A stretch of 64,000 nucleotides of DNA from Eledone cirrhosa (GCA_964016885.1 OZ024744.1:95728001-95792000), one strand, 5' to 3'. Positions 42,353 through 63,594 are shown, counted from the first letter of the stretch. Translations and numbers: made by a program. The notes: generated by a model not told the origin, from the letters alone.

Positions 42353-42369
42353 ATATATATATATATAAT

Positions 42370-44105
42370 GTGTCTGGGATGATGCCGGTGTACTTAGTGT
42401 CACGAATGATCAGAAAAAGGAGGCCTGGAAATGTCATTATGAGAGACTGATGAATGTGGAGAACAAATGGGAGAGAGAGAAATTACCCTTGGTAGATCCG
42501 ACAGAGGGACCAGCTATTGAGATTGACGAATATAGGGTCCAAGAGGCGATTAGGGAAATGAAAAATGGTAAGGCTGCCGGACCATCGGGAATAGTTGCTG
42601 AGATGCTGAAGGCATCAGGGGACGTAGGCACTAAACTGGTTGCACGCATCATCAATCAGGCTATATATGGTGGTGCCATACCCAAAGACTGGTGCAGCAG
42701 TATTCTCATAAATTGCTACAAAGGTAAAGGGGATGCTCTGGAGAGGAGCAATTATAGGGGTATAAAACTGAGAGATCAGGTTATGAAAGTGGCAGAAAGG
42801 ATATTAGCACAACTAATTAGAGAAAGGGTCAAACTAGATGAGATGCAGTTTGGTTTTGTGCCTGGGAAGAGTACAACAGATGCCCTCTTCTTGGTGAGAC
42901 AATTGCAAGAGAGGTTCTTAGAGAAGAATAAGCCACTATACTTAGCCTTTGTTGACCTAGAGAAGGCCTTTGATAGGGTACCCCAATCTGTCATCTGGTG
43001 GTCCCTAAGGAAGCCAGGTGTTGAGGAATGGCTTGTGAGGACAGTGCAAACTTTGTACAGAGGTACTCGCAGTAAAGTCAGGGTAGGAATGGAGTTTAGT
43101 GAGGAATTCCAGATACAAGTAAGAGTACATCAGGGTTCGGTCCTCAGCCCGCTCTTGTTCATTATAGTCCTCCAAGCCATAACAGAGGAGTTTAAGACTG
43201 GCTGTCCATGGGAACTTCTCTATGCTGACGATCTTGTTCTTATAGTAGAATCAGTGGAGGAGCTAGAGAATAAATTCTGGCTATGGAAACAGCAGTTGGA
43301 AGCAAGAGGACTGAGAGTGAACCTAGCTAAGACAAAAGTGTTGATGAGTAGAAAAGAGGACAAAACCCTGATTCCATCAGGGAAATGGCCATGTTCGATA
43401 TGCAGAAAAGGAACTGGCATAAATTCTATAAAATGCACACAATGCAGATCCTGGGTACACAAGAGATGTTGCGAGATAGCAGGCAAACTAACAGGTTGGG
43501 AGAAATATGTATGCAGTAGATATACAGGGAAATTAGACAGTAGAAGTCGCATTGATAGACACATTTTTCAAATGCAGGAGGGCGCTATAGAAGTGGTGGA
43601 TAGCTTCCGGAATTTAGGAGATCAGATTAGCATGGGAGGAGGGTGTTCTGAGGCCATAGTATCTAGAATAAGGACGGGTTGGAAGAAGTTTAGGGAGCTG
43701 CTTCCTCTGTTGACGAAGGGTTTCTCCCTGCGTATGAAAGGCCGGTTGTATGATGCCTGTGTGAGGAGCGCGATGCTGTATGGTAGTGAGACATGGGCAG
43801 CAACTGCAGAGGATATGCGACGGCTGGAGAGAAATGAGGCAAGCATGCTCCGTTGGATGCACATGGAGGATGACCGATGGGTGAAAAAATGCCAGGAAAT
43901 GCCAGTTGAAGGAAGATGTGGTAGAGGTAGACCACGAAAAACATGGGCGGAGGTGGTGAGAACAGACCTCAGATCATTGAAGCTCACGGTGGAGATGACG
44001 AAGGACCGTGACGAGTGGAGAGATGCTGTGCTGAATAAGACCCGTCCCACCCTTGCTAGCAGGGAAAAGCGGACGTAAAATGATGATGATGATGATGATG
44101 ATGAT
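42370..44105 (+). mobile_element. 5'-truncated RTE LINE with 542-aa ORF (42450-44078)
   Basis: KAAGPSG, NYRGIKL, QFGF, DLEKAFDRVP, LLYADD and PHD; internal deletion in the thumb region; (GAT)n tail. Confidence 0.93.
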
Positions 44106-45173: not shown

Positions 45174-45244
45174 TATTTTATTATGCACATTTCAAAAACA
45201 AATATCATCATGGGATGATATCTGCGTTCTCATCAGATAAAATA
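45174..45244 (-). ncRNA. Type I hammerhead ribozyme motif
   Basis: Minus strand: tattttat CTGATGA gaacgcagatatcatc-ccat-gatgatatttgttttt GAAA tgtgca TA ataaaata; 8-bp stem I, ~15-bp stem II, near-palindromic stem III. Confidence 0.82.
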
Positions 45245-48379: not shown

Positions 48380-51300
48380 TTCTGAAAGGCTAAAATGAAT
48401 CACTAGAGTTGATTTGGCTTCGTTCCAGTCATCCATCCATACAAATTTTACGACGGTATTTCAGCTCCCACAACACATCTACTTTGTTATTCTCCTACCA
48501 TGCTGACTGTCTATTTTTCCTCGTCTCTGTCTACCTAACAATTTCAATCCCAACCACCCAATCACACAACCATAGCCTATTCGACCAATCAAACCTCAGC
48601 ATGCCATTTCTTCTGCTACTACTACCTAACTAACTCTCTCCTCCCCTGTCCCAGCCCAACACACCCTGCCATTATTCCACCACCAGTTCTTCTAGCCCTG
48701 AATTTTTCTACCGTTATGGATGGATGAGCTGAGAATAAATTTGAGTGACTCTGAATTAATAGATGAAATATGAATCTGCGAGCTACCAAGCACCCATGTG
48801 AAGCGCCAATCCAGAGACCCTTCCCTACGAGTCTCGACAAATGCCCAAAACTCCGAGTTGGTACCATCAATATAGGCACACTGAAAGGAAGAGCAGGAGA
48901 AATCGTAGAAATGCTAGAGCGAAAGGAAATTTATGTATGCTGTGTGCAAGAGACTAGATGGAGAGGAGAGTCTGCTAGAGTCCTTGTAGGAAAAAGTCGG
49001 TGCTACAAATTTTTCTGGGTGGGAAATGACGATGGGATGGGTGGTGTAGGTATACTACTAGCTGACAAGTGGGTAGATAAAGTAATCTCAGTGTACAGGG
49101 TAAATACAACAATCATTAAATTCAGACTAGTCCTGAATAAAACAATTACCACAATAATATCAGCTTACGCACCCCAATCGGGGCTGCCAGACGAACTTAA
49201 GGATAGGTTTTACGAGTCCCTAATGCACACTACTGCTCTAACAGACAACAATGACTTCCTAATCATCGCAGGAGATTTTAACGGACACGTAGGTAAACAC
49301 TGTGACGGCTTCAATAGAGTACATGGAGGCCATGGGGTTGGTACAAGAAATGAGTAAGGATTCAGACTTCTAGAATTCTGCGACGCCAATGACATGTCGA
49401 TATGTAACAAACTTTAAAAAACCCGACAACCACCTGATCACCTATAGATCAGGGGAGCACTCTAGTCATATAGATTTTATCCTCATCAGAGGACGTGACA
49501 GATGGACGGTCGTAAACACAAAAGCCTTCCCTAGTGAGGAATGTACATCCCAACATAGCTTAGTTGTCAGCGACCTCACAGTCAGAACTAGACGAACCTG
49601 GAAACAGAGGCCGACCTGGAGAAGAAGGATCTGGAAGCTGAAAGACCCCTCAACCAGTAACAGATTTAAAGATATTTTACTCAACGCCTACGACAGTAAA
49701 GAAGAACAGATAGAGACATTCAATGTAGAAGAGAACTGGGAGTTCCTAAAAAATAACTTACTAGAGGCGACGGATGAGGTCTGTGGCTGGAGTAAGACCA
49801 CATGCAGGAGGAGAGTGACTTGGTGGTGGAACAATAAGGTAGATGAGGCAGTTAAGGCCAAGAGACAGGCATGGAAAGAATGGAAGAACGGGGGGAGCAG
49901 GTACATTACATAGAGACCAAGAGGGAAGCTAGGCAACAAGTATACTTAGCTAGGAGGGAAGCAGAGGATAGAAATTTCAAGCATGTTTTGCAACGTGAGG
50001 ACCAGAAACAGGAGGTGTTCAAGATTGCGAGGCAGTGTGTCAGAGAGAGAAGTGTATCCGGAATGATTAAGGTGAGCTTGCCCTCACAAGTGCTGAGAAG
50101 AAAGATGCATGGAAGAGTCATTATGATAGATTACTAAATGAGGAGAATGCATGGGAAGAAGAGACCCTACCCCAAGTAGACTCTATAGAGGGGCCAGCAA
50201 AACAAGTCAGCAGCAACGTAGTAAGTAAGGTAATCAAAGATATGAAGATGGGGAAGGCAACCGGTCCATCGGATATAGCTGCCGAGATGCTGATGGCATC
50301 TGGGTCTGTAGGTCACACTATAACCACATGTATTGTTAACCAGGTAATACTAGAAGGTGTCATACCAAAAGATTGGTACAGTAGCATCATTGTCAACTGC
50401 TACAAAGGTAAAGGTGATGCACTAGATAGAGGAAAGTATAGAGGTATAAAGCTGATGGACCAGGTCATGAAAGTAACAGAAAGAGTTATAGCACAGTTGA
50501 TTAGGGACCGGGTGAAACTAGATGAGATGCAATTTGGGTTTGTACCAGGAAGAGGCACCACTGATGCCCTCTTCCTTGTCAGGCAGTTACAGGAAAAGTA
50601 CCTAGCTAAAAGTAAGCCACTCTACCTGGCATTTGTAGACCTTGAGAAAGCCTTTGACAGAGTTCCACGTGCTGTAATCTGGTGGGCTCTTAGAAAACTA
50701 GGAGTAGATGAATGGCTTGTGAAAGCGGTACAAGCCATGTATAGGGGAGCAGTCAGCAAAGTTAGGATTAGCAATGAGTATAGCGAGGAATTTAGCATAC
50801 AGGTTGGGGTCCACCAGGGCTCTGTTCTTAGCTCCCTCCTGTTCATCATAGTCCTGCAGGCAATAATGGACGAGTTTAAGACCGGATGCCCATGGGAACT
50901 CCTGTATGCTGATGACCTCGCACTTATAGCTGAATCTATGGTAGAACTAGAGAAGAAATTCCAAACTTGGAAGCAGGGACTAGAAAGAAAGGGTCTCAAA
51001 GTCAACATGACAAAGACTAAGGTCCTTGTAAGTAGACGAGAAAACAGAACCCAGATCCCCTCAGAGAAATGGCCTTGCTCGGTATGTAGGAAAGGTGTAG
51101 GTAGGAACGCCATTCTCTGCCCCAAATGCAAACAATGGGTACACAAGAGATGTAGCCGGATTTCAGGAAGCTTAATTAAGAATATAGGCTTCACATGCAG
51201 CAGCTGTGCTGGGACAGCAAGCAGAAACAGCCACAGGAAACAAGTACCACCAATCTCTGGGAGGGCGCTGTAGAAACAGTAGACAGCTTCTGCTACCTAG

Positions 51301-52146
51301 GTGACCGAATTAGCAGCAGAGGTGGGTGTTCAGAAAGTACAATAACTAGGGTAAGAACGGGATGGAAGAAGTTTAGGAAACTACTACCACTGCTAGCTGC
51401 AAAAGGCTTCTCCCTCAGAATGAAAAGCAGACTGTATGATGCATGTATCCGAACAGCGATGTTGCATGGTAGTGAAACCTGGGCGCTGAAGGTGGAAGAC
51501 TTACGTAGATTAGAGAGAAACGAAGCCTGCATGCTCCGATGGATGTGTAACAGTAATATATGCGAACGACAAAGCATAAATGAATTGAGAGAGAGACTGA
51601 GCATAAGAGGAATCAAATGCTGTGTGCAGGAGAGGCGGTTGCGCTGGTATGGACATGTGATGCGTATGAAGGATGACAGCTGTATAAAAAGGTGCAGAGC
51701 ACTAGAAGTCAATGGAAACCGCGGAGTGGGGAGACCCAAGATGACCTGGGATGAGGTCATAAAAGCCGACCTTACCCGATTACACCTCAAAGGCGATGAC
51801 ACATGACCGTGACCTCTGGCGTCACACAGTAATATAGAGTACCCGACCTCCCATGGGTACAAGCTGAAGCATATAGACAATATGCCCCCACACCCCCCAT
51901 CGCAAGGTGATTGTGAAGGTGCCACGGCAAAAAAGCACCCAGTAAAGTGGATGTGTAGGCGCCACGAAAAAGCACCCAGCACTCACTTAAATGAGGTTGG
52001 TGTTAGGAAGGGCATCCAGCTGTAGAAATCAAGCCAAATCAGTTCCTGTATGAGCAAGACAAGGTCAGCCGACCAGACACTGCCCGTCTAACCCATGCTA
52101 GCGTGGAAGAACGGACGTAAAACGGTGATGATGATGATGATGATGA
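48380..52146 (+). mobile_element. Near-full-length RTE LINE (APE, RT and PHD), frameshifted
   Basis: ORFs 48770-49357 (APE), 49389-49913, 50242-51273 (RT and PHD), 51195-51806; 3' UTR repeats and (ATG)n tail. Confidence 0.94.
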
Positions 52147-52788: not shown

Positions 52789-54905
52789 AATAATAATAAT
52801 AATAATAATGAAATTATTGTGTAAAGTGCTCAGGTGCACTACAACTCGTCAAAGGTGCATGTATAGTACATAGAATAATACACAAATGTCAGGGAAGTAC
52901 ATGTGTGTATGTGTTAGCTGTAGTGTTGGCGGATCTCGGGAAGCATGGAGGCCTTAAAGGATGCAGTGTCTCGACAGCTAACAACTGGTGCAGGTAGTTT
53001 GTTCCATGCTTCAGCAACTCTGAGCGTGAAAAAATGTTTCCGAAAGTCATGGGAACTGTGCTGTTGTCTGACTTTGTGGGCATGTCCACGTGTGTTAGAT
53101 GGAAATCAAAAAGGTACTCAGGGTTGTTGTTGGCAACATGGTTAACAATTTTGTGGGTGTTTACCAAGTCAGTTGCCAGGCGTCGGAGCTTCAATGTATC
53201 CATGCCCAGGGAAGCAATGTGCTCAGAGTATGGTAGTTGCCTGATGGAGGGTATTCGCTTGGTTGCACGTCTCTGAACAGTTTCCAGACTGGTGATGAAA
53301 AATTCTAAGTGTGGTCGCACCATAGCCATGTACAGCCTTAAATAGATATCTGGAGAGCGGCTGACAAAGGTCTTGCTGAGTGATGCTAAGACACCCTCGG
53401 CTCTCTTGACAATTTTAGAGACGTGCCTCGTCCAACGCAAATCGCTGCTGACCGTAATGCCCAGGTCACGTTCACAAGAAGACTTCTTGATATTAGTGCT
53501 GTGGAGGGAATATGTGGATGCTGGGTTTTTACTCCCAAAATGCATGGTGGTGCACTTGTCCACAGCTAACTTGAGTTGCCAGTCTGAGATCCATTGTTGC
53601 ATTGTGTCCAGGTCAGACTGCAAGCAAGATCTATAGTGTTCAGGATCTGTCCTTTTTATCTCAAGGTACAGCTTGATGTCGTCTGCGTACTTTAGTACCG
53701 TGGCATTCTTTAAGTTGGCATCTATGTCATTAATATATGCCACAAACAAAAGGGGGCCAAGAACAGATCCCTGTGGTACACCAGATGACATCTCATATGG
53801 TGAGGAATGCTGTCTCAGAACCGTGACTACCTCTCTTTGACTGAGAATAAAGGACTTCAACCAGTTAAAAAGATCATCCTTCACATCCATTGCAGAGAGT
53901 TTTGCCATAAGCGTTTTGTGTGGCACAGAATTGAAGGCTTTCGCAAAGTCAAGGTAAACAACATCCACCCATGAGCCGCCATCAGTGATCCGGGTGATGT
54001 CCTCAAGAAACTCTACAAGTTGATCACAGCAGCTGGAGTTGAGGATAAATCCAAATTGCGAGGGCAGGATAAGACTGTGAGAGCTCCAGAAGTTCCAAAG
54101 CGTTTCTCTGACACAGGATTCCATCGGTTTGGCGATGCAACTAGTAAGACTGACTGGACGATAGTTCACAGGTGATGTGTGGTCACCCTTTTTGAACAGA
54201 GGAATGACACTAGCAGTTTTCCACTGTTCTGGAGTAGCACTGTTGTTCAGACAGAATTGGAAGAAGCGTGATAACTGGTGCAGAAGGAAGTACCCACCAC
54301 GTTTAAGAAGCAAGTACGTAACCCCATCAAGACCAGGAGAGGCATGGTTGCGTTTATTTTTTAGGTGACGTCGCAGCATTGCAGGTGTAAATTCCATGGT
54401 TGTGTAGAGTCCGGTGTCATAGGTGGTGGAGATGGTACACTCTGGTCTTCAATAGTGAAAATGCCTGCATAGCATTCAGCAACGAGCTCTGCGCATTCCT
54501 TGGGGTCGTCAGTAACCTGGCTTGTGTGGGGATTGCGAAGAGGACCAACTGGAGAGTGAGGCCTCTGCTTTGAGTGAACATACTTCCAGAACACCTTACT
54601 GTCAGGGCTGGTTGCAATGCGCTGCTCAAATTGAAGCACTGCCTTTTTTGTCACCTGTTTGAGGTGGTTGGACGATCTATTTCGCCTCTTCCTATTAATG
54701 TCTGATTTGTGAAGTTTGTACTCACGTTCAGCATTGCGCCGTTCTTTTCTGGCAAGACGGACTGCTGCAGTCTCCCAAATTGCACTTTGGGGATGTTTTT
54801 TCCGCTTACGTGGCACCGATGCTGCACATGCTGTCCATATTGAGCTCAGGATGTTCTGGAGTACAGTGTTGACATCTCCAGAGTCGTAGAACTCAAGCCA
54901 ATGTT
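52789..54905 (-). mobile_element. 5'-truncated CR1-clade LINE (ORFs 54361-54960 and 52889-54397)
   Basis: SPGLDG, FKKGD..SPVNYRPVSLTS, VDVVYLDFAKAF, SGVPQGSVLGPLLF, YADD; (ATT)n tail. Short 3'-end copies at ~56970-57310. Confidence 0.92.
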
Positions 54906-55691
54906 CAAACCGGCCAGAATTCTCTACCTCTTTCTGTTGAAACTGGCTGTAACTGGTCACTCAAACTGATGTTAAGGTATTGTTCTTAAAATAAATACTT
55001 TCAAAAAAATCTCATAGATTTGATATTATGTGAGGTAAAGCCTTTACCATGAAAATATAACAGTATATATAGAGTAATGTGAATGCTAAAGGGTTAAGAA
55101 TATCTTGCTAATATTATTTCACGTGGTGGATTGGCAAGTCATTTTCACCAACAGTTGAGTTATTCGCCATTTCGGCGAATAACTCAACTGTTGGTGAAAA
55201 TGACTTGTTTTCTACATTAATAACCATAACTATGAAAATATAAATGATTAAATGAAATTTATTTGATAACCATGACTTGTTTTCTAATTTGGCCCTTTTA
55301 AGGGCCACCTATAATTTCATTTAAGTAACTCCACTTACATCGATATGCTTTAATAAAAAAAATAGTACGTTTAACTTTATTCACACGTGGCTAAAAATTT
55401 CGTAAAATAAAGTGTATGCATTAGTAATACACTGAGATAATTGATGGCCTTGTTCCAAAAGTAGAAACAATTATTAATCGGATTATGTGTGTATAAAAGA
55501 TTCATGTAATTATGTTTCAGGAATAAATATATAGAATGTAAAATGTAAATTAAGACAAAAAAATATTTTCTTTTCAATAAAAATATAAAATACAATATAA
55601 AATACAATCATCATAGAAATACAAGGTGTAGCAATGAGATAGTAATTGAAAAATTTAGTCATACGTGTTAAAAAGAAAATACAATACTTAC

Positions 55692-56124
55692 TAACAATTA
55701 CTATCGATATTAAGAGAAGCCCATTTTCAGGAATTTCGCAATCATAAAATATGGGTTTCAGCAAATACGTGGTGAAAATAAGAGAAGCGGCAGCAATACC
55801 AACAGGGCATACTAGAAGAAAATTGATCCATAAACAAACGAATGCAGCGAAATCTCCGAAAGCTTTTTTAATGTAAATATATTCTCCTCCAGAAGACGGT
55901 AGAGAGGTTCCAAGTTCAGCATAACAGAGGGCACAAAGCATATTATATACACCACATATAGACCACATTAAAAGACTAAGACCTACAGATTTTACATTTT
56001 GTAAAATACCTACGGGAGATATAAATATTCCCGATCCTATAATAATTCCAACGATAATGCCGACCCCTTGTAATAAAGTCACTTGTTTTTTAAGCTCTAC
56101 TTTACCATTATCATGTCTAGCCAT
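55692..56124 (-). CDS. SLC7-family (L-type/heteromeric) amino-acid transporter light chain, first coding exon in window
   Basis: ATG at 56124 gives MARHDNGKVELKKQVTLLQGVGIIVGIIIGSGIFISPVGIL...LCYAELGTSLPSSGGEYIYI...LKPIFYDCEIP. Contains the TM1 GSG motif, the YAELG motif and the Cys equivalent to the heavy-chain disulfide Cys. GTAAG donor at 55691, phase 1. A possible CAG acceptor lies 10 nt upstream of the ATG. Confidence 0.93.
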
Positions 56125-58330: not shown

Positions 58331-58777
58331 GTGAGTATGTAAATATATTTTATTCTTTCCATCCTACTAAAACACTCTGGCCACCTGTGGCTTGTATGTT
58401 AACTTGACCACTCACCCCAGTCTGTGCCATGATAGAGTCTTGTTAAATGTTTAATTTCTATTACCAACCCACCTAAAAAATTTCCCTACTATATATCTGT
58501 TGAATTACTATTCTTGGGGTTTTTATTTATTTATTTTTTATTTATTTCTTTATTTATTTTATTTATTTATTCATTTATCTATTTATTTATTCATTTATTT
58601 ATTTATTTACTTATTTATTTATTTCAAAAAAGCACTCTGGCTAATTGATCACTCCCCATAGAAAAAACGGCCTGTGCCATGAAGTGGTCCCGTGTATCTA
58701 AATACCCCCCCCCCCATCCACCACCCCTCCCTTGCCATTACCTAAATGTATAAATACCAGAACTTAATATGACACCC

Positions 58778-58828
58778 AGCTTCCTGAAGATTTCATCTGA
58801 ATGAAACAGTACTAGTCCTGTAGAAGCT
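58778..58828 (+). ncRNA. Minimal type I hammerhead motif in a pseudo-LTR-like context
   Basis: agcttc CTGAAGA tttcatctgaat GAAA cag-tactagtc-ctg TA gaagct; TATAAATA ~25 nt upstream and AATAAA downstream. Confidence 0.7.
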
Positions 58829-58913
58829 CCTTCTATAAAATAAAAAAATTTACTCTGCCATGTATTGAGTACCTTACTTACTGTGGTTATCGCCGACTCA
58901 ACCCGGGACCTAC

Positions 58914-58986
<73 letters not shown>

Positions 58987-59114
58987 AAGTTATATTTAAA
59001 ATTGTTGGGTTACAACTAGTAAATATTTATAACTGATATAAAAGCACTCGACAAATATTTGGAGTATATTTACAATATTAAATAAATGGAAAACTATATT
59101 TATAAAACCATATT

Positions 59115-59180
59115 TATTTCATTATATATATTTCGGGGATATCATATTAACAATATGCTATGCCTTCATCAGACAAAATA
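59115..59180 (-). ncRNA. Inverted copy of the 62422-62487 hammerhead
   Basis: Exact reverse complement within the left arm. Confidence 0.75.
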
Positions 59181-59552
59181 CAATATAAACAGTTTTATAG
59201 ATAAATATATTCGACATACCGTAATAAACATCAACTTCATTTGAAGAGGTTTACTCTAGCAGTGAAAATACAGAGAGAAAGAAAGAGAGAAAGAAAGAGA
59301 GAAAGAAAAGAGGGAAAAACGAAAGAAAGAAAGACAAAACGAAGAGAAGGAAGAAAAAGAAGAAAAAGAAAAAGAAGAAATGCATGGAACAAAATAGAGA
59401 GATGGAAAAATAGATAAAGCGAAGAGCTTCAAGTAAAGAGACAGAAAGATATATATATATATAGAGAGAGAGGAAATAGAGATAGATACATATATATATA
59501 TAGAAAATTAAGTAGTGGGAGGTCATTTTGAGTAAGTGTATCAATGATACAT

Positions 59553-59587
<35 letters not shown>

Positions 59588-60221
59588 GCTCAAGTATTAA
59601 TGTAAGGGAGATATATAGAGAGATATAGAGAGATATAGAGAGAGAAAAAAATTTAAAAATATCCAGACATATTCGAGGCGTAGAAAACCCTATGTTTTAA
59701 TGTATTAGTATTTATAAAACTTACACTACACTGTAAATATCAGTATTCCTGAATGAAACAAGTATTCACAATGTGTGAAAATTCATTATCTTATGTTTAG
59801 TTTTAAAAATTCATATGTCTATGTGACAGCTACAAATCTCAATGTGAATCCAACTGATTCACTCCGCAAACTCTAAGTTATCGGAAAACATTCTCAATGT
59901 GGTATAAAAATTTGAGCGTATTATTATTCTTGCGATTACTCTACAAGATTATCTATCAAGCAGAAATAGAGAGCAGATTTCAATATACTAATCGAAAATA
60001 TATATTATATTATAAACATAATAATAAGTAAAAATATAGAATAGAAAACTAAAAAAATATTACGAAAGAATATTACATAATAAAAATATTGCATATTAAA
60101 AATACTACGTATTAAAAAATATTACGTATTAAAGATTTACATATAAAAATTTACATATAAAAATATACATATAAAAATTTACATATAAAAATTTACATAT
60201 AAAAATATATAAAAATATTAA

Positions 60222-60881
60222 TGGTTTGCCCCCCCTTTCTCACTAAACATTAAAACCCACATCGCTAAATTATTTTTCAAAGCTCTTGATAATCGCTTCC
60301 CTAGAACACATAGGTATCACTCAATCTTCAATAGGCATACAATTAAATTAACCTACTCATCCACCAAAAATTTAGCACAAAATATTAATAGAATAAATAA
60401 TAGGAACTTAAAACCTACTGATAATAGCATAAATAATATACAAGTTAACAAATGTAACTGTAGAGATAGATCTAAATGTCCGTTAAATAACAACTGCTTA
60501 GTTAAAAATATAGTATACAATTGTAATGTTAATACTGACTCTAATTCTTTTAACTACGTCGGTTCCACATCGACGGAATTTAAACTTCGCTATAATAACC
60601 ACAAGAATTCTTTCACAGATCCAAATAAAAAATCTTCAACGGCACTATCAGGGGTACTCTGACAACTTAAGCTAGATAACGTTAGATATTCGACGGCTTG
60701 GAATATAGTCTCAAGAGGGATTCCTTTTAATTCATCCTCTGAGACATGTGACCTCTGTGCAGAGGAGATATTCTTTATACTAAAATCTAAAAACTCCCTT
60801 AACCTACGGACAAATTTATTCAGTTGTTGCAAACATAGATTAAACTCAACGTTTAAATATAAATTTAAATTTAAAATGTAG
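60222..60881 (+). pseudogene. PLE thumb/linker and GIY-YIG endonuclease (220 codons, 5'-truncated, one in-frame TGA at 60660)
   Basis: Manual translation: WFAPPFSLNIKT...FNRHTIKLTYS...CNCRDRSKCPLNNNC...NIVYNC...NYVGSTSTEFKLRYNNHKNSF...CDLCAEE...LNLRTNLFSCCKH. Confidence 0.88.
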
Positions 60882-62006
60882 TATATTTAGTTTGATTTAT
60901 ATTTATATGAGAACTAGCCGATAAATCTTTTGATTCCTAAATCTTTGATTCCCTCGTTTTACTCTTTTTATTGTTTATTTTATTTTATTTATTTTTATTT
61001 TTATCTAAACATTCCTCATGAAAAATTAAGCTACCCTAAAAGCCGATGTTCCAAATTTTTTGAATTAACCTTACACTAGATAAACTTCTATATTAAACAT
61101 AGGAACATATGTAGACATAATTGGACATCATAATCTTTTTACGATATTCTTTGCTAGATGTGATTTGATAGATAATTTTTGGCTTTGTCTTGTAGTGAAC
61201 GTGGCAATATATTGTCAATTAACTTTGAAGGGTTGTTTTTTTGTGGTTTATTTTTATTTTTATTTTCATTTTTATTTTTATTTTTATTTTTATTTTTATT
61301 TTTATTTTTACTTTTATTCTTTTAGTATTGTAGTATTCTATAATATTTTTATTTTTATTTTATTTATTTTTTTTAATATTTTTATATATTTTTATATGTA
61401 AATTTTTATATGTAAATTTTTATATGTATATTTTTATATGTAAATTTTTATATGTAAATCTTTAATACGTAATATTTTTTAATACGTAGTATTTTTAATA
61501 TGCAATATTTTTATTATGTAATATTCTTTCGTAATATTTTTTTAGTTTTCTATTCTATATTTTTACTTATTATTATGTTTATAATATAATATATATTTTC
61601 GATTAGTATATTGAAATCTGCTCTCTATTTCTGCTTGATAGATAATCTTGTAGAGTAATCGCAAGAATAATAATACGCTCAAATTTTTATACCACATTGA
61701 GAATGTTTTCCGATAACTTAGAGTTTGCGGAGTGAATCAGTTGGATTCACATTGAGATTTGTAGCTGTCACATAGACATATGAATTTTTAAAACTAAACA
61801 TAAGATAATGAATTTTCACACATTGTGAATACTTGTTTCATTCAGGAATACTGATATTTACAGTGTAGTGTAAGTTTTATAAATACTAATACATTAAAAC
61901 ATAGGGTTTTCTACGCCTCGAATATGTCTGGATATTTTTAAATTTTTTTCTCTCTCTATATCTCTCTATATCTCTCTATATATCTCCCTTACATTAATAC
62001 TTGAGC

Positions 62007-62049
<43 letters not shown>

Positions 62050-62421
62050 ATGTATCATTGATACACTTACTCAAAATGACCTCCCACTACCTAATTTTCT
62101 ATATATATATATGTATCTATCTCTATTTCCTCTCTCTCTATATATATATATATCTTTCTGTCTCTTTACATGAAGCTCTTCGCTTTATCTATTTTTCCAT
62201 CTCTCTATTTTGTTCCATGCATTTCTTCTTTTTCTTTTTCTTCTTTTTCTTCCTTCTCTTCGTTTTGTCTTTCTTTCTTTCGTTTTTCCCTCTTTTCTTT
62301 CTCTCTTTCTTTCTCTCTTTCTTTCTCTCTGTATTTTCACTGCTAGAGTAAACCTCTTCAAATGAAGTTGATGTTTATTACGGTATGTCGAATATATTTA
62401 TCTATAAAACTGTTTATATTG

Positions 62422-62487
62422 TATTTTGTCTGATGAAGGCATAGCATATTGTTAATATGATATCCCCGAAATATATATAATGAAATA
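62422..62487 (+). ncRNA. Type I hammerhead motif in the PLE arm
   Basis: tattttgt CTGATGA aggcatagcatatt-gtt-aatatgatatcccc GAAA tatata TA atgaaata. Confidence 0.75.
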
Positions 62488-63594
62488 AATATGGTTTTAT
62501 AAATATAGTTTTCCATTTATTTAATATTGTATATATATATATATATATGTATGTGTATATATGTATGTATATATATATATATATATGTTTATATGCATGT
62601 ATATGCGTGTGTGTATGCACGTTTGTGTATTTGTATGTATGTGTATGTATGGATATGTTGATATTTATGTGTGTATGTATGTATGTATGTATGTATGTGT
62701 ATATGTATGTCAGTTGGTGCTACTGGTAACATGTATCCCAGTACAACCTGTCCCATGGTCGGGTCGTTGGCGACTAAACTGGCAACCCCACCAAGGCTTC
62801 TTGGTGAGGAGGGTGACTTTGGACATCCTGCAGGACTAAAAACAAAACCTGTCAAAAGGGCAAAGGAGCTCTTAAGAGTCAATGGCCATCCAAAATCACC
62901 GGGAGAGATGACCCCTTAGCCTTTGTCAAGGCAGAATTCTAGGAGAAGGAAAACTCTGATATAACACCTGCAACCCTGATGGTATCCAATGATGTTGACT
63001 TGTTCTTCTCTTTGGTAAATATCATCTTGGTTAAGAGAGTGGGACTGGCTTTGTGCAGTGCCTTTGCTCACTATAAAAGCTTCACGGCGCAGGCATTGCT
63101 TTATATCTGGAGATCTCTCTGCACTTGTCGTCACATGGTACCATGGGCCCAGCACTATGTGTCAATAATTGTCACAGCTGTAGTGTTTGTACCAGAGTTT
63201 TCAAGTCGCTGGCTGGACTAAAAAGTCACACTCGTTCAGCGCATCGGTAGGGGTTCTCCTACATGGATATAAAGTAGTGGCCGTACTCGAAAACGAGTTG
63301 GCAGCCACCATGTATGTGTATGTATATATATATATACACATATATGTGTGTGTGTATGTATGTGTGTATGGATATATATATATATATATATATGTATGTA
63401 TATAATTGTGTGTGTGTGTTTGCATGTTTGTTTTTATTTTTTATTTTTCATTTCCTTCCTTTTCCGGCCTCACTTTCATATAGATTATATCGGCATACGT
63501 CAAGACGGGCGGTCTCAAAAGCGTCTAAACTCATGCTTGCGTGGAAGATAGACGTTAAACGATGATGATGACACAAACACATATATATATACAA

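Follow-up and report, generated by a model that had tools for sequence, protein, structure and literature searches.

A Young Hydra-Clade Penelope-Like Insertion in Eledone cirrhosa With Two Fixed Ends and a Candidate Hairpin Past Each End

Introduction

How does a single retrotransposon insertion come to consist of an element fragment and an inverted copy of its own 3' region, with a tail on one side only? The question is raised by a Penelope-like element located near the end of a 64,000-nucleotide (nt) stretch of the Eledone cirrhosa genome (GCA_964016885.1 OZ024744.1:95728001-95792000), here referred to as the window. A first-pass annotation had described a young, 5'-truncated Penelope-like insertion of the Naiad clade in which hammerhead motifs accompany an inverted copy of the 3' region, and had suggested that it could regulate a nearby gene. 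Our analysis is based on the assembled genome sequence, homolog searches, predicted folds, and published papers. The insertion is indeed young, 5'-truncated and two-armed; it is a dead, very young copy of a high-copy Penelope-like retrotransposon of the Hydra clade. We estimate at about 80% the probability that the two-armed layout arose from one break in a (TA)n tract, at which both DNA ends copied one RNA from two fixed sites located 87 nt apart, each of them probably marked by a hairpin.

The Insert and Its Two Arms

The arms (table 1) were identical in 1154 of 1157 aligned columns, as expected from the near-identical inverted arms described previously. One of the 3 mismatches was located at the outer edge, leaving 2 internal substitutions, in addition to one 8-nt indel in a TAAA tract. 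Both alleles of the left arm were missing from the 28 and 29 other arm copies to which they were compared. The previously proposed extent, 59071 to 62531, was correct at its right end, but the insert starts at 58984, because a tail on the left arm had been overlooked. This tail runs for 87 nt and then meets a (TA)n tract, which was presumably the target of the insertion, whereas the right arm has no tail. The inner junction of the 2 arms contained neither microhomology nor a TA tract. Partial tandems (pseudo-long terminal repeats, pLTR), an inverted 5'-truncated copy, and a one-sided tail, which are the insertion marks of endonuclease-containing (EN+) Penelope-like elements, were all present in the family.

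Table 1. Coordinates in the window of the insertion, its parts, and the nearby permease gene (ORF, open reading frame; RT, reverse transcriptase)
Feature	Position	Strand	Remark
Amino-acid permease gene, first coding stretch	55780..56124	-	Pfam AA_permease_2, E 2.9e-16
(TA)n tract, left junction	58915..58983	.	From sequence; also flank of an older Penelope-type end
One-sided tail, 87 nt, between short end (A) and long end (B)	58984..59070	-	
Predicted hairpin A (CUC..GAG, then YGCUUU)	59041..59065	-	6-8 nt 3' of end A in element RNA
Left arm: inverted, 5'-truncated copy of element 3' region	59071..60221	-	
Type I hammerhead motif, left arm, outward-pointing	59110..59186	-	Predicted cut after 59123
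RT-endonuclease ORF, last 219 codons (520-738): thumb end, CxCx5C linker, GIY-YIG, CxxC, CxH	60222..60881	+	
Element 3' region, long, microsatellite-rich	60882..62531	+	Right arm = 61373-62531, stops at end A
Type I hammerhead motif, right arm	62416..62492	+	Core at 62430; predicted cut after 62479
(TA)n tract, right junction	62532..62548	.	From sequence

The Arms of the Family End at Two Fixed Points

Copies of the family were counted with the 42-nt hammerhead core as an exact pattern, which gave 2,937 matches in the genome, compared with 0 for a control pattern. The geometry of pairing was read from the first 100 cores listed, with neighbors defined as cores within 10 kb of each other. This set contained 35 neighboring pairs in back-to-back orientation, none face to face and 3 in tandem, such that 70 of the 100 cores were located in back-to-back pairs.

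All 30 sampled arms stopped at one of two points, ends A and B, which lie about 52 and about 139 nt, respectively, past the predicted hammerhead cut and are separated by 87 nt. One A and one B end were combined in 11 of 12 back-to-back pairs, and one short and one long end were also found in all 14 two-armed inserts that were read, including the one in the window. The same combination was seen in two further Hydra-type families, in all 7 independent pairs of one and all 4 of the other, a fifth pair of the latter having been discarded because its flanks were common with those of another pair. For the 3 families together, 22 of 23 pairs combined a short and a long end (p 2.9e-6 against an expectation of 0.5), and all 48 sampled arms of the 2 other families ended within one of two clusters.

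Furthermore, the nearest copy of an arm was its own mate for 12 of 15 arms, the remaining 3 being ties. Mates differed by 1 to 4 substitutions, as compared to a median of 6 between inserts. Both ends fall in the 5' untranslated region (UTR) at UA-like patches, where weak pairing with a (TA)n primer is possible. As a separate point, homology between primer and template was rejected as the sole rule for the choice of start site, since the perfect (UA)4 of hammerhead stem III coincided with the end in 0 of 30 arms.

A Candidate Hairpin Past Each End

In the window family, a CUC..GAG hairpin followed by YGCUUU was located 4 to 12 nt 3' of each end; its twin past end B is confined to copies that are full or in tandem. 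The same motif was found after both ends in the family of the element immediately to the left of the insert (2,144 exact core matches) and in a third family, here called the 714-aa family (3,765 matches), which is 38% to 39% identical to the window family. A filter for the motif applied to 260-nt templates gave exactly 2 hits in each, one past each end. Compensatory changes were observed in 2 of the 4 base pairs of the stem, with CUC/GAG versus CAC/GUG and a closing A-U versus G-C. A similar shape was seen by eye at the end of the consensus of the coral element Hydra-2_Amil.

Judged from these sequence comparisons, it is likely that a small RNA hairpin past each end marks the start of copying. 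We also lean, by a narrow margin, toward a broader rule for the Hydra clade, according to which the twin hairpin (CWC..GWG, then Y-R-CYY-U) would set two start sites for the RT, both of which would be used by a dimeric protein on one RNA at one (TA)n break. If so, the hairpins and twin priming would by themselves explain the Penelope footprint of an inverted copy plus a one-sided tail, and the rule would offer a direct test both of how start sites are chosen in Penelope-like elements and of the origin of inverted arms with a one-sided tail. Start-site choice was left partly open by an in vitro study of a Poseidon-clade element (Frangieh et al. 2024, PMC11167929). Our literature search found no work on a conserved start-site hairpin or on twin priming in Penelope-like elements, although most subscription papers and the supplements of PMC11167929, which may bear on the matter, were outside its coverage.

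How the Two-Armed Layout May Have Arisen

We propose that the element protein would cut the (TA)n tract and that one RNA would be primed from both DNA ends, probably in a coupled manner, at sites A and B. Both complementary DNA (cDNA) strands would then run toward the 5' end of the RNA and stop prematurely, one at 60222 and the other at the position equivalent to 61373, whereupon the two unfinished strands would be joined head to head without microhomology. Since the hammerhead cut site is 5' of both ends, the template would have been uncut or re-ligated RNA.

Several of these steps have a counterpart in the Poseidon element of Anolis carolinensis (PAc), whose protein cuts and extends both target strands in vitro, is predicted to be dimeric, and does not require hammerhead cleavage (PMC11167929). 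In that system copying begins at two internal sites, the spacing of which corresponds to the tail. The PAc element thus has in common with the window family a tail delimited by two internal start sites, an AT-rich target cut on both strands, and an uncut RNA template. However, PAc starts inside the ORF, at an AC-rich stem-loop and with no homology to the target, whereas the ends of the window family are located in the 5' UTR, each of them 5' of its own hairpin. The pairing of one short with one long end is seen in the window family, whereas the main text of PMC11167929 contains no report of such pairing.

A number of observations weigh against our proposal. The start site in vitro was the same on the top strand as on the bottom one (PMC11167929), and the PAc system therefore does not predict strict pairing of A with B. 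One of the 12 pairs mentioned above combined A with A, and gene conversion at a later time could also make the arms alike. As for the hairpins, shuffled sequences hit both ends in 0 of 2000 cases, but the filter was made post hoc and this comparison is partly circular. A prediction made beforehand, that end A should be located 4 to 12 nt before the first hairpin, was borne out by 8 of 13 arms in one of the two other families and by 11 of 13 in the second, the rest being at 13 to 22 nt. Finally, 5 of the 6 hairpins were weak on their own, with energies of -1.3 to -6.5 kcal/mol.

The most serious competing explanation is that the inverted arm was produced when the cDNA from a single priming event switched template or folded back, or else that one (TA)n tract was hit by two independent insertions. 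Insertions do stack in this manner, since 2 other Penelope-type ends flank the insert in the window and another stretch fetched from the genome (L038) contains 3 adjacent inserts. However, fold-back of the right arm cannot supply the 87-nt tail, which is unique to the left arm, and independent insertions would yield neither the short and long combination in 22 of 23 pairs, nor arms that are closest to their mates, nor an inner junction without a TA tract. We consider this explanation improbable. An assembly or chimeric-read artefact, which the first-pass annotation had named as a potential objection, is practically eliminated by the 2 substitutions and one indel between the arms, the left-arm alleles missing from other copies, the tail on one arm only, the contact of both ends with (TA)n at the fixed points of the family, and the recurrence of the same layout throughout the genome.

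The Family Protein and the Dead Copy in the Window

The reading frame that had been placed at the arm junction does begin at 60222 and carries CxCx5Cx5C, IVY..YVG, R, H, CxxC, and CKH, but it is not uninterrupted. A start codon is absent from 60222-60881, and an in-frame TGA that had been overlooked is located at 60660-60662. The window copy differs at position 60662 from all 29 other close copies, and the codon was TGG in 28 of these 29, the last one being unmatched. The corresponding Trp residue was retained in 89 of 95 aligned proteins. Since it has no start codon and a private termination codon, the window copy encodes nothing. Reading of the TGA as selenocysteine was rejected, as the codon is private to this copy and replaces Trp rather than Cys.

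RT-bearing copies, a search for which had been recommended, were identified elsewhere in the genome, with a full ORF of 738 amino acids (aa) in 4 of 14 other stretches fetched. The RT comes first and the GIY-YIG domain last in this family protein, with RWR at residues 38-40, DKT at 119-121, YRDD at 353, and an endonuclease at about 597-724 that contains CxCx5C at 597, CxxC at 695, and CxH at 722. It had 221 homologs at E<=1e-10, the best of which was 40% identical, and the few named homologs were from the cephalopod Argonauta hians. The family protein was aligned with 94 of the 120 homologs listed, giving 95 proteins in total; the other 26 were left out mostly because of partial coverage or near duplication. 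The GIY-YIG catalytic set (Y618, Y631, G633, R642, H646, E701, and N713) was invariant in all 95 proteins.

A structure model of the family protein had a predicted local distance difference test (pLDDT) score of 90.8, and the top 5 matches in Foldseek were TERTs, the best being a telomerase RT with an E-value of 6.4e-10. Less favorably, the top fold matches of the C-terminal part, T4 EndoII and I-TevI, were weak (E 0.10-0.28); Pfam was silent on the fragment, the full protein, and 6 homologs except for 2 sub-threshold hits; and no PDB sequence was hit at E<=1 in a profile search. As modeled and aligned here, the element carries a single ORF for a telomerase-like RT and a GIY-YIG endonuclease, which are the attributes of an EN+ Penelope-like element.

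Abundance and Youth of the Family

When the genome was searched at the DNA level for the endonuclease fragment, 1,991 candidates were obtained, and all 40 that were scored were 99% to 100% identical to it. The window copy showed 1 to 3 differences from each of its 29 closest copies over 660 nt. Among the genomic matches to a homolog, 55 of the 58 scored were free of internal termination codons, and the 12 matches that were fetched were 92% to 98% identical to the family protein. In tandem copies the unit recurs at intervals of 3,969 to 4,028 nt, measured between hammerheads, and the sequence continues seamlessly from the hammerhead through both ends and the 5' UTR to the start codon. At another locus (G000:C7:78452867-78463066), 3 full-length copies were arranged in a perfect tandem, 4,011 nt apart. 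Such a tandem fits a product longer than the unit, made by copying of circular RNA or by repeated template jumps.

The window locus as such matters little: the clade is known, the layout has been published, and such insertions number about 1,500 or more. As material, the family is of use because it is very young and has dozens of uninterrupted ORFs and sharply defined ends.

Hammerhead Motifs and the Neighboring Gene

The hammerhead cores are located at 62430 (+) and 59172 (-). The stems comprise 8+5 base pairs (bp) in stem I, 2+3+6 bp in stem II, and in stem III either 2 bp or an 8-bp dimer formed by the self-complementary sequence AUAUAUAU. The core in the right arm has one extra A after A9, G10.1-C11.1, and a stem III that is 2 bp long or palindromic. 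In these respects it resembles the hammerheads of metazoan Penelope-like elements (Cervera and de la Pena 2014, PMC4209133), which have in common an extra base after A9, G10.1-C11.1, a long stem II, and a palindromic stem III. The motifs in that study were assayed for cleavage, and single motifs did not cleave while dimers cleaved poorly.

A hammerhead descriptor gave one hit in the 3' region as compared to 0 of 1000 shuffled sequences, in agreement with the CUGAUGA/GAAA motif with palindromic stem III, and its cut after 62479, that had been predicted. Rfam models, which had been put forward as a check, did not match: no hammerhead was detected, whether in 6 kb searched at E<=1 or in 141 nt searched at E<=10, and the matches to microRNA models in the same scans were TA-repeat noise only. 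In the monomer, the hammerhead fold (-1.7 kcal/mol) is not the predicted minimum-energy fold (-8.7 kcal/mol; z 0.81). This energy difference, the Rfam result, and the failure of single motifs to cleave in PMC4209133 all speak against an active monomer. The descriptor also gave a further hit at 45236 (-) in the window.

In the sister subfamily located next to the insert, the hammerhead was identical at 73 of 77 positions and the 4 differences were all compatible with the fold. The upstream sequence was identical at 454 of 600 positions and the 126 nt after the hammerhead at 117. Conservation specific to the hammerhead was rejected, because the 126 nt that follow are equally conserved and the upstream part contains microsatellites.

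Read-through RNA from the insert had been proposed to fold into a long double-stranded RNA (dsRNA) with a self-cleavage site. The long duplex was supported by the predictions, in which RNA from either strand formed about 1,150 long-range pairs, but a working cleavage site was not. In the predicted fold of the whole 3.5-kb insert, 50 of 50 core bases paired with the opposite arm on either strand, and the local duplex was predicted at -123 kcal/mol. The antisense arm is transcribed first on either strand, and each strand contains a single sense hammerhead, so that a dimer is impossible in cis. With the core predicted to be buried in a 1.15-kb duplex, no self-cleavage is expected; a self-cleaving dsRNA is unlikely, and the hammerheads would be passengers locked in a duplex in any read-through RNA.

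The permease exon begins at 56124 (-), 2.86 kb from the insert, which agrees with the earlier estimate of about 3 kb upstream of the first coding exon. The gene is presumably an SLC7 gene, a label that is taken from the first-pass annotation and fits a sequence motif. A putative splice acceptor was seen by eye about 70 nt upstream of the permease start codon, and the insert may be located inside a 5'-UTR intron of the gene. This location and the long predicted duplex are what speak for the insertion as a regulator of the permease gene via the editing, dicing, or cleavage of a 1.15-kb dsRNA. However, the copy is too young, given its 1 to 3 differences from the closest copies, for a signal of conservation, and the hammerhead is predicted to be locked. 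Moreover, among the first 100 cores listed, 10 belong to the start of a pair wider than 1 kb. Extrapolated to the whole genome, this family alone would account for roughly 300 fold-backs of kilobase size, and one near a gene is therefore expected. Nothing marks the window copy out as a regulator, its layout being the default of the family, and we regard a regulatory role as very doubtful.

The Family Belongs to the Hydra Clade

The first-pass annotation had assigned the element to Naiad. As described by Craig et al. (2021, PMC8557442), Naiad elements have an N-terminal endonuclease, DKA, a CCHH motif, and no canonical hammerheads, whereas Hydra elements have a C-terminal endonuclease, RWK, DKT, CxCX5C, CxxC, CxH, no CCHH, hammerheads, and (TA)n targets, and GxKF/Y is not conserved. 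In the 95 aligned proteins, RW[KR] was found in 85, GxK[FY] in 1, DKT in 88, CxCx5C in 74, CxxC..E in 95, and CxH in 91, and CxCx5C, CxxC, and CxH were also present in the window's own fragment. The endonuclease is C-terminal to the RT in the family protein, no Cys pair (CCHH) was found within the GIY-YIG core of its sequence, and a hammerhead motif is located near the 3' end of the element, with TA repeats flanking the arms. All Hydra markers that we tested were thus present, and the Naiad markers, namely an N-terminal endonuclease, DKA, CCHH, and the absence of hammerheads, were not; on these sequence markers the family belongs to the Hydra clade.

Naiad and the window element do share the insertion layout, a Cys cluster with CxC, and (TA)n targeting, and cephalopod Naiads appear in File S1 of PMC8557442. 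Against this stand the opposite domain order, DKT rather than DKA, and the lack of CCHH, together with the canonical-type hammerhead of the window element and a TGA that is private and located at a Trp codon, and so not a selenocysteine codon of the Naiad type. Naiads further differ in having an insertion in the fingers (PMC8557442). Membership in Naiad can be set aside with near certainty.

Compared with published members of the Hydra clade such as Hydra-1_Obim and Penelope-13_HM (PMC8557442), the family has in common the order of RT and GIY-YIG, RW[K/R], DKT, CxCx5C, CxxC, CxH, the lack of CCHH, a hammerhead about 100 nt from the 3' end, and (TA)n targets. An inverted 5'-truncated copy, as in the window, is listed for Penelope-13_HM. 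A one-sided tail is also known in the clade, with a length of 30 to 40 nt as compared to 87 nt here, and the unit is about 4.0 kb rather than generally below 3 kb, because of its 1.6-kb microsatellite-rich 3' region. The reference rows for Hydra-1_Obim were compared by eye, as supplement text; the hammerhead listed for that element differs from ours, and the window family is therefore another family. It represents a new, young, high-copy member of a known clade, with a layout that has already been published.

Flanking and Other Elements

The site already carried 2 other Penelope-type ends, which flank the insert. To the left, at 58493-58914 (+), is the 3' end of the second high-copy hammerhead family, with the core at 58784, a U.U at the base of stem II, and a long end, and the studied element was inserted into the (TA)n flank of this end. 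ORF pieces upstream of 2 other copies of the second family look Hydra-type. To the right, from about 63625 and past the end of the window (to L045:4820), is a two-armed insertion of the sister subfamily, consisting of a short-end arm of about 24 nt and a long-end arm of 1.2 kb. The sister subfamily is about 76% identical to the window family in the 3' region and 93% to 95% identical in the hammerhead and end module. At another locus (L077, -), the tail of a sister-subfamily copy was again located directly in the (TA)n flank of a long end of the left neighbor's family, in the same nesting.

The left neighbor's family also contained many back-to-back pairs with cores just 4 to 8 nt apart. This spacing places the truncation of both arms within the 5' strand of stem I, and it may represent a preferred stop or joining point. 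In the 714-aa family, the 5' region contains one hammerhead-like motif. A second, different motif occurs about 400 nt past the termination codon, followed by shared non-TA sequence, and is possibly a captured second end inside a long 3' region. Finally, long frames were noted within the permease gene region at 42369-44075 and 48767-51803 (+) and at 52892-54960 (-), which, judged by their motifs, are probably other non-LTR retroelements.

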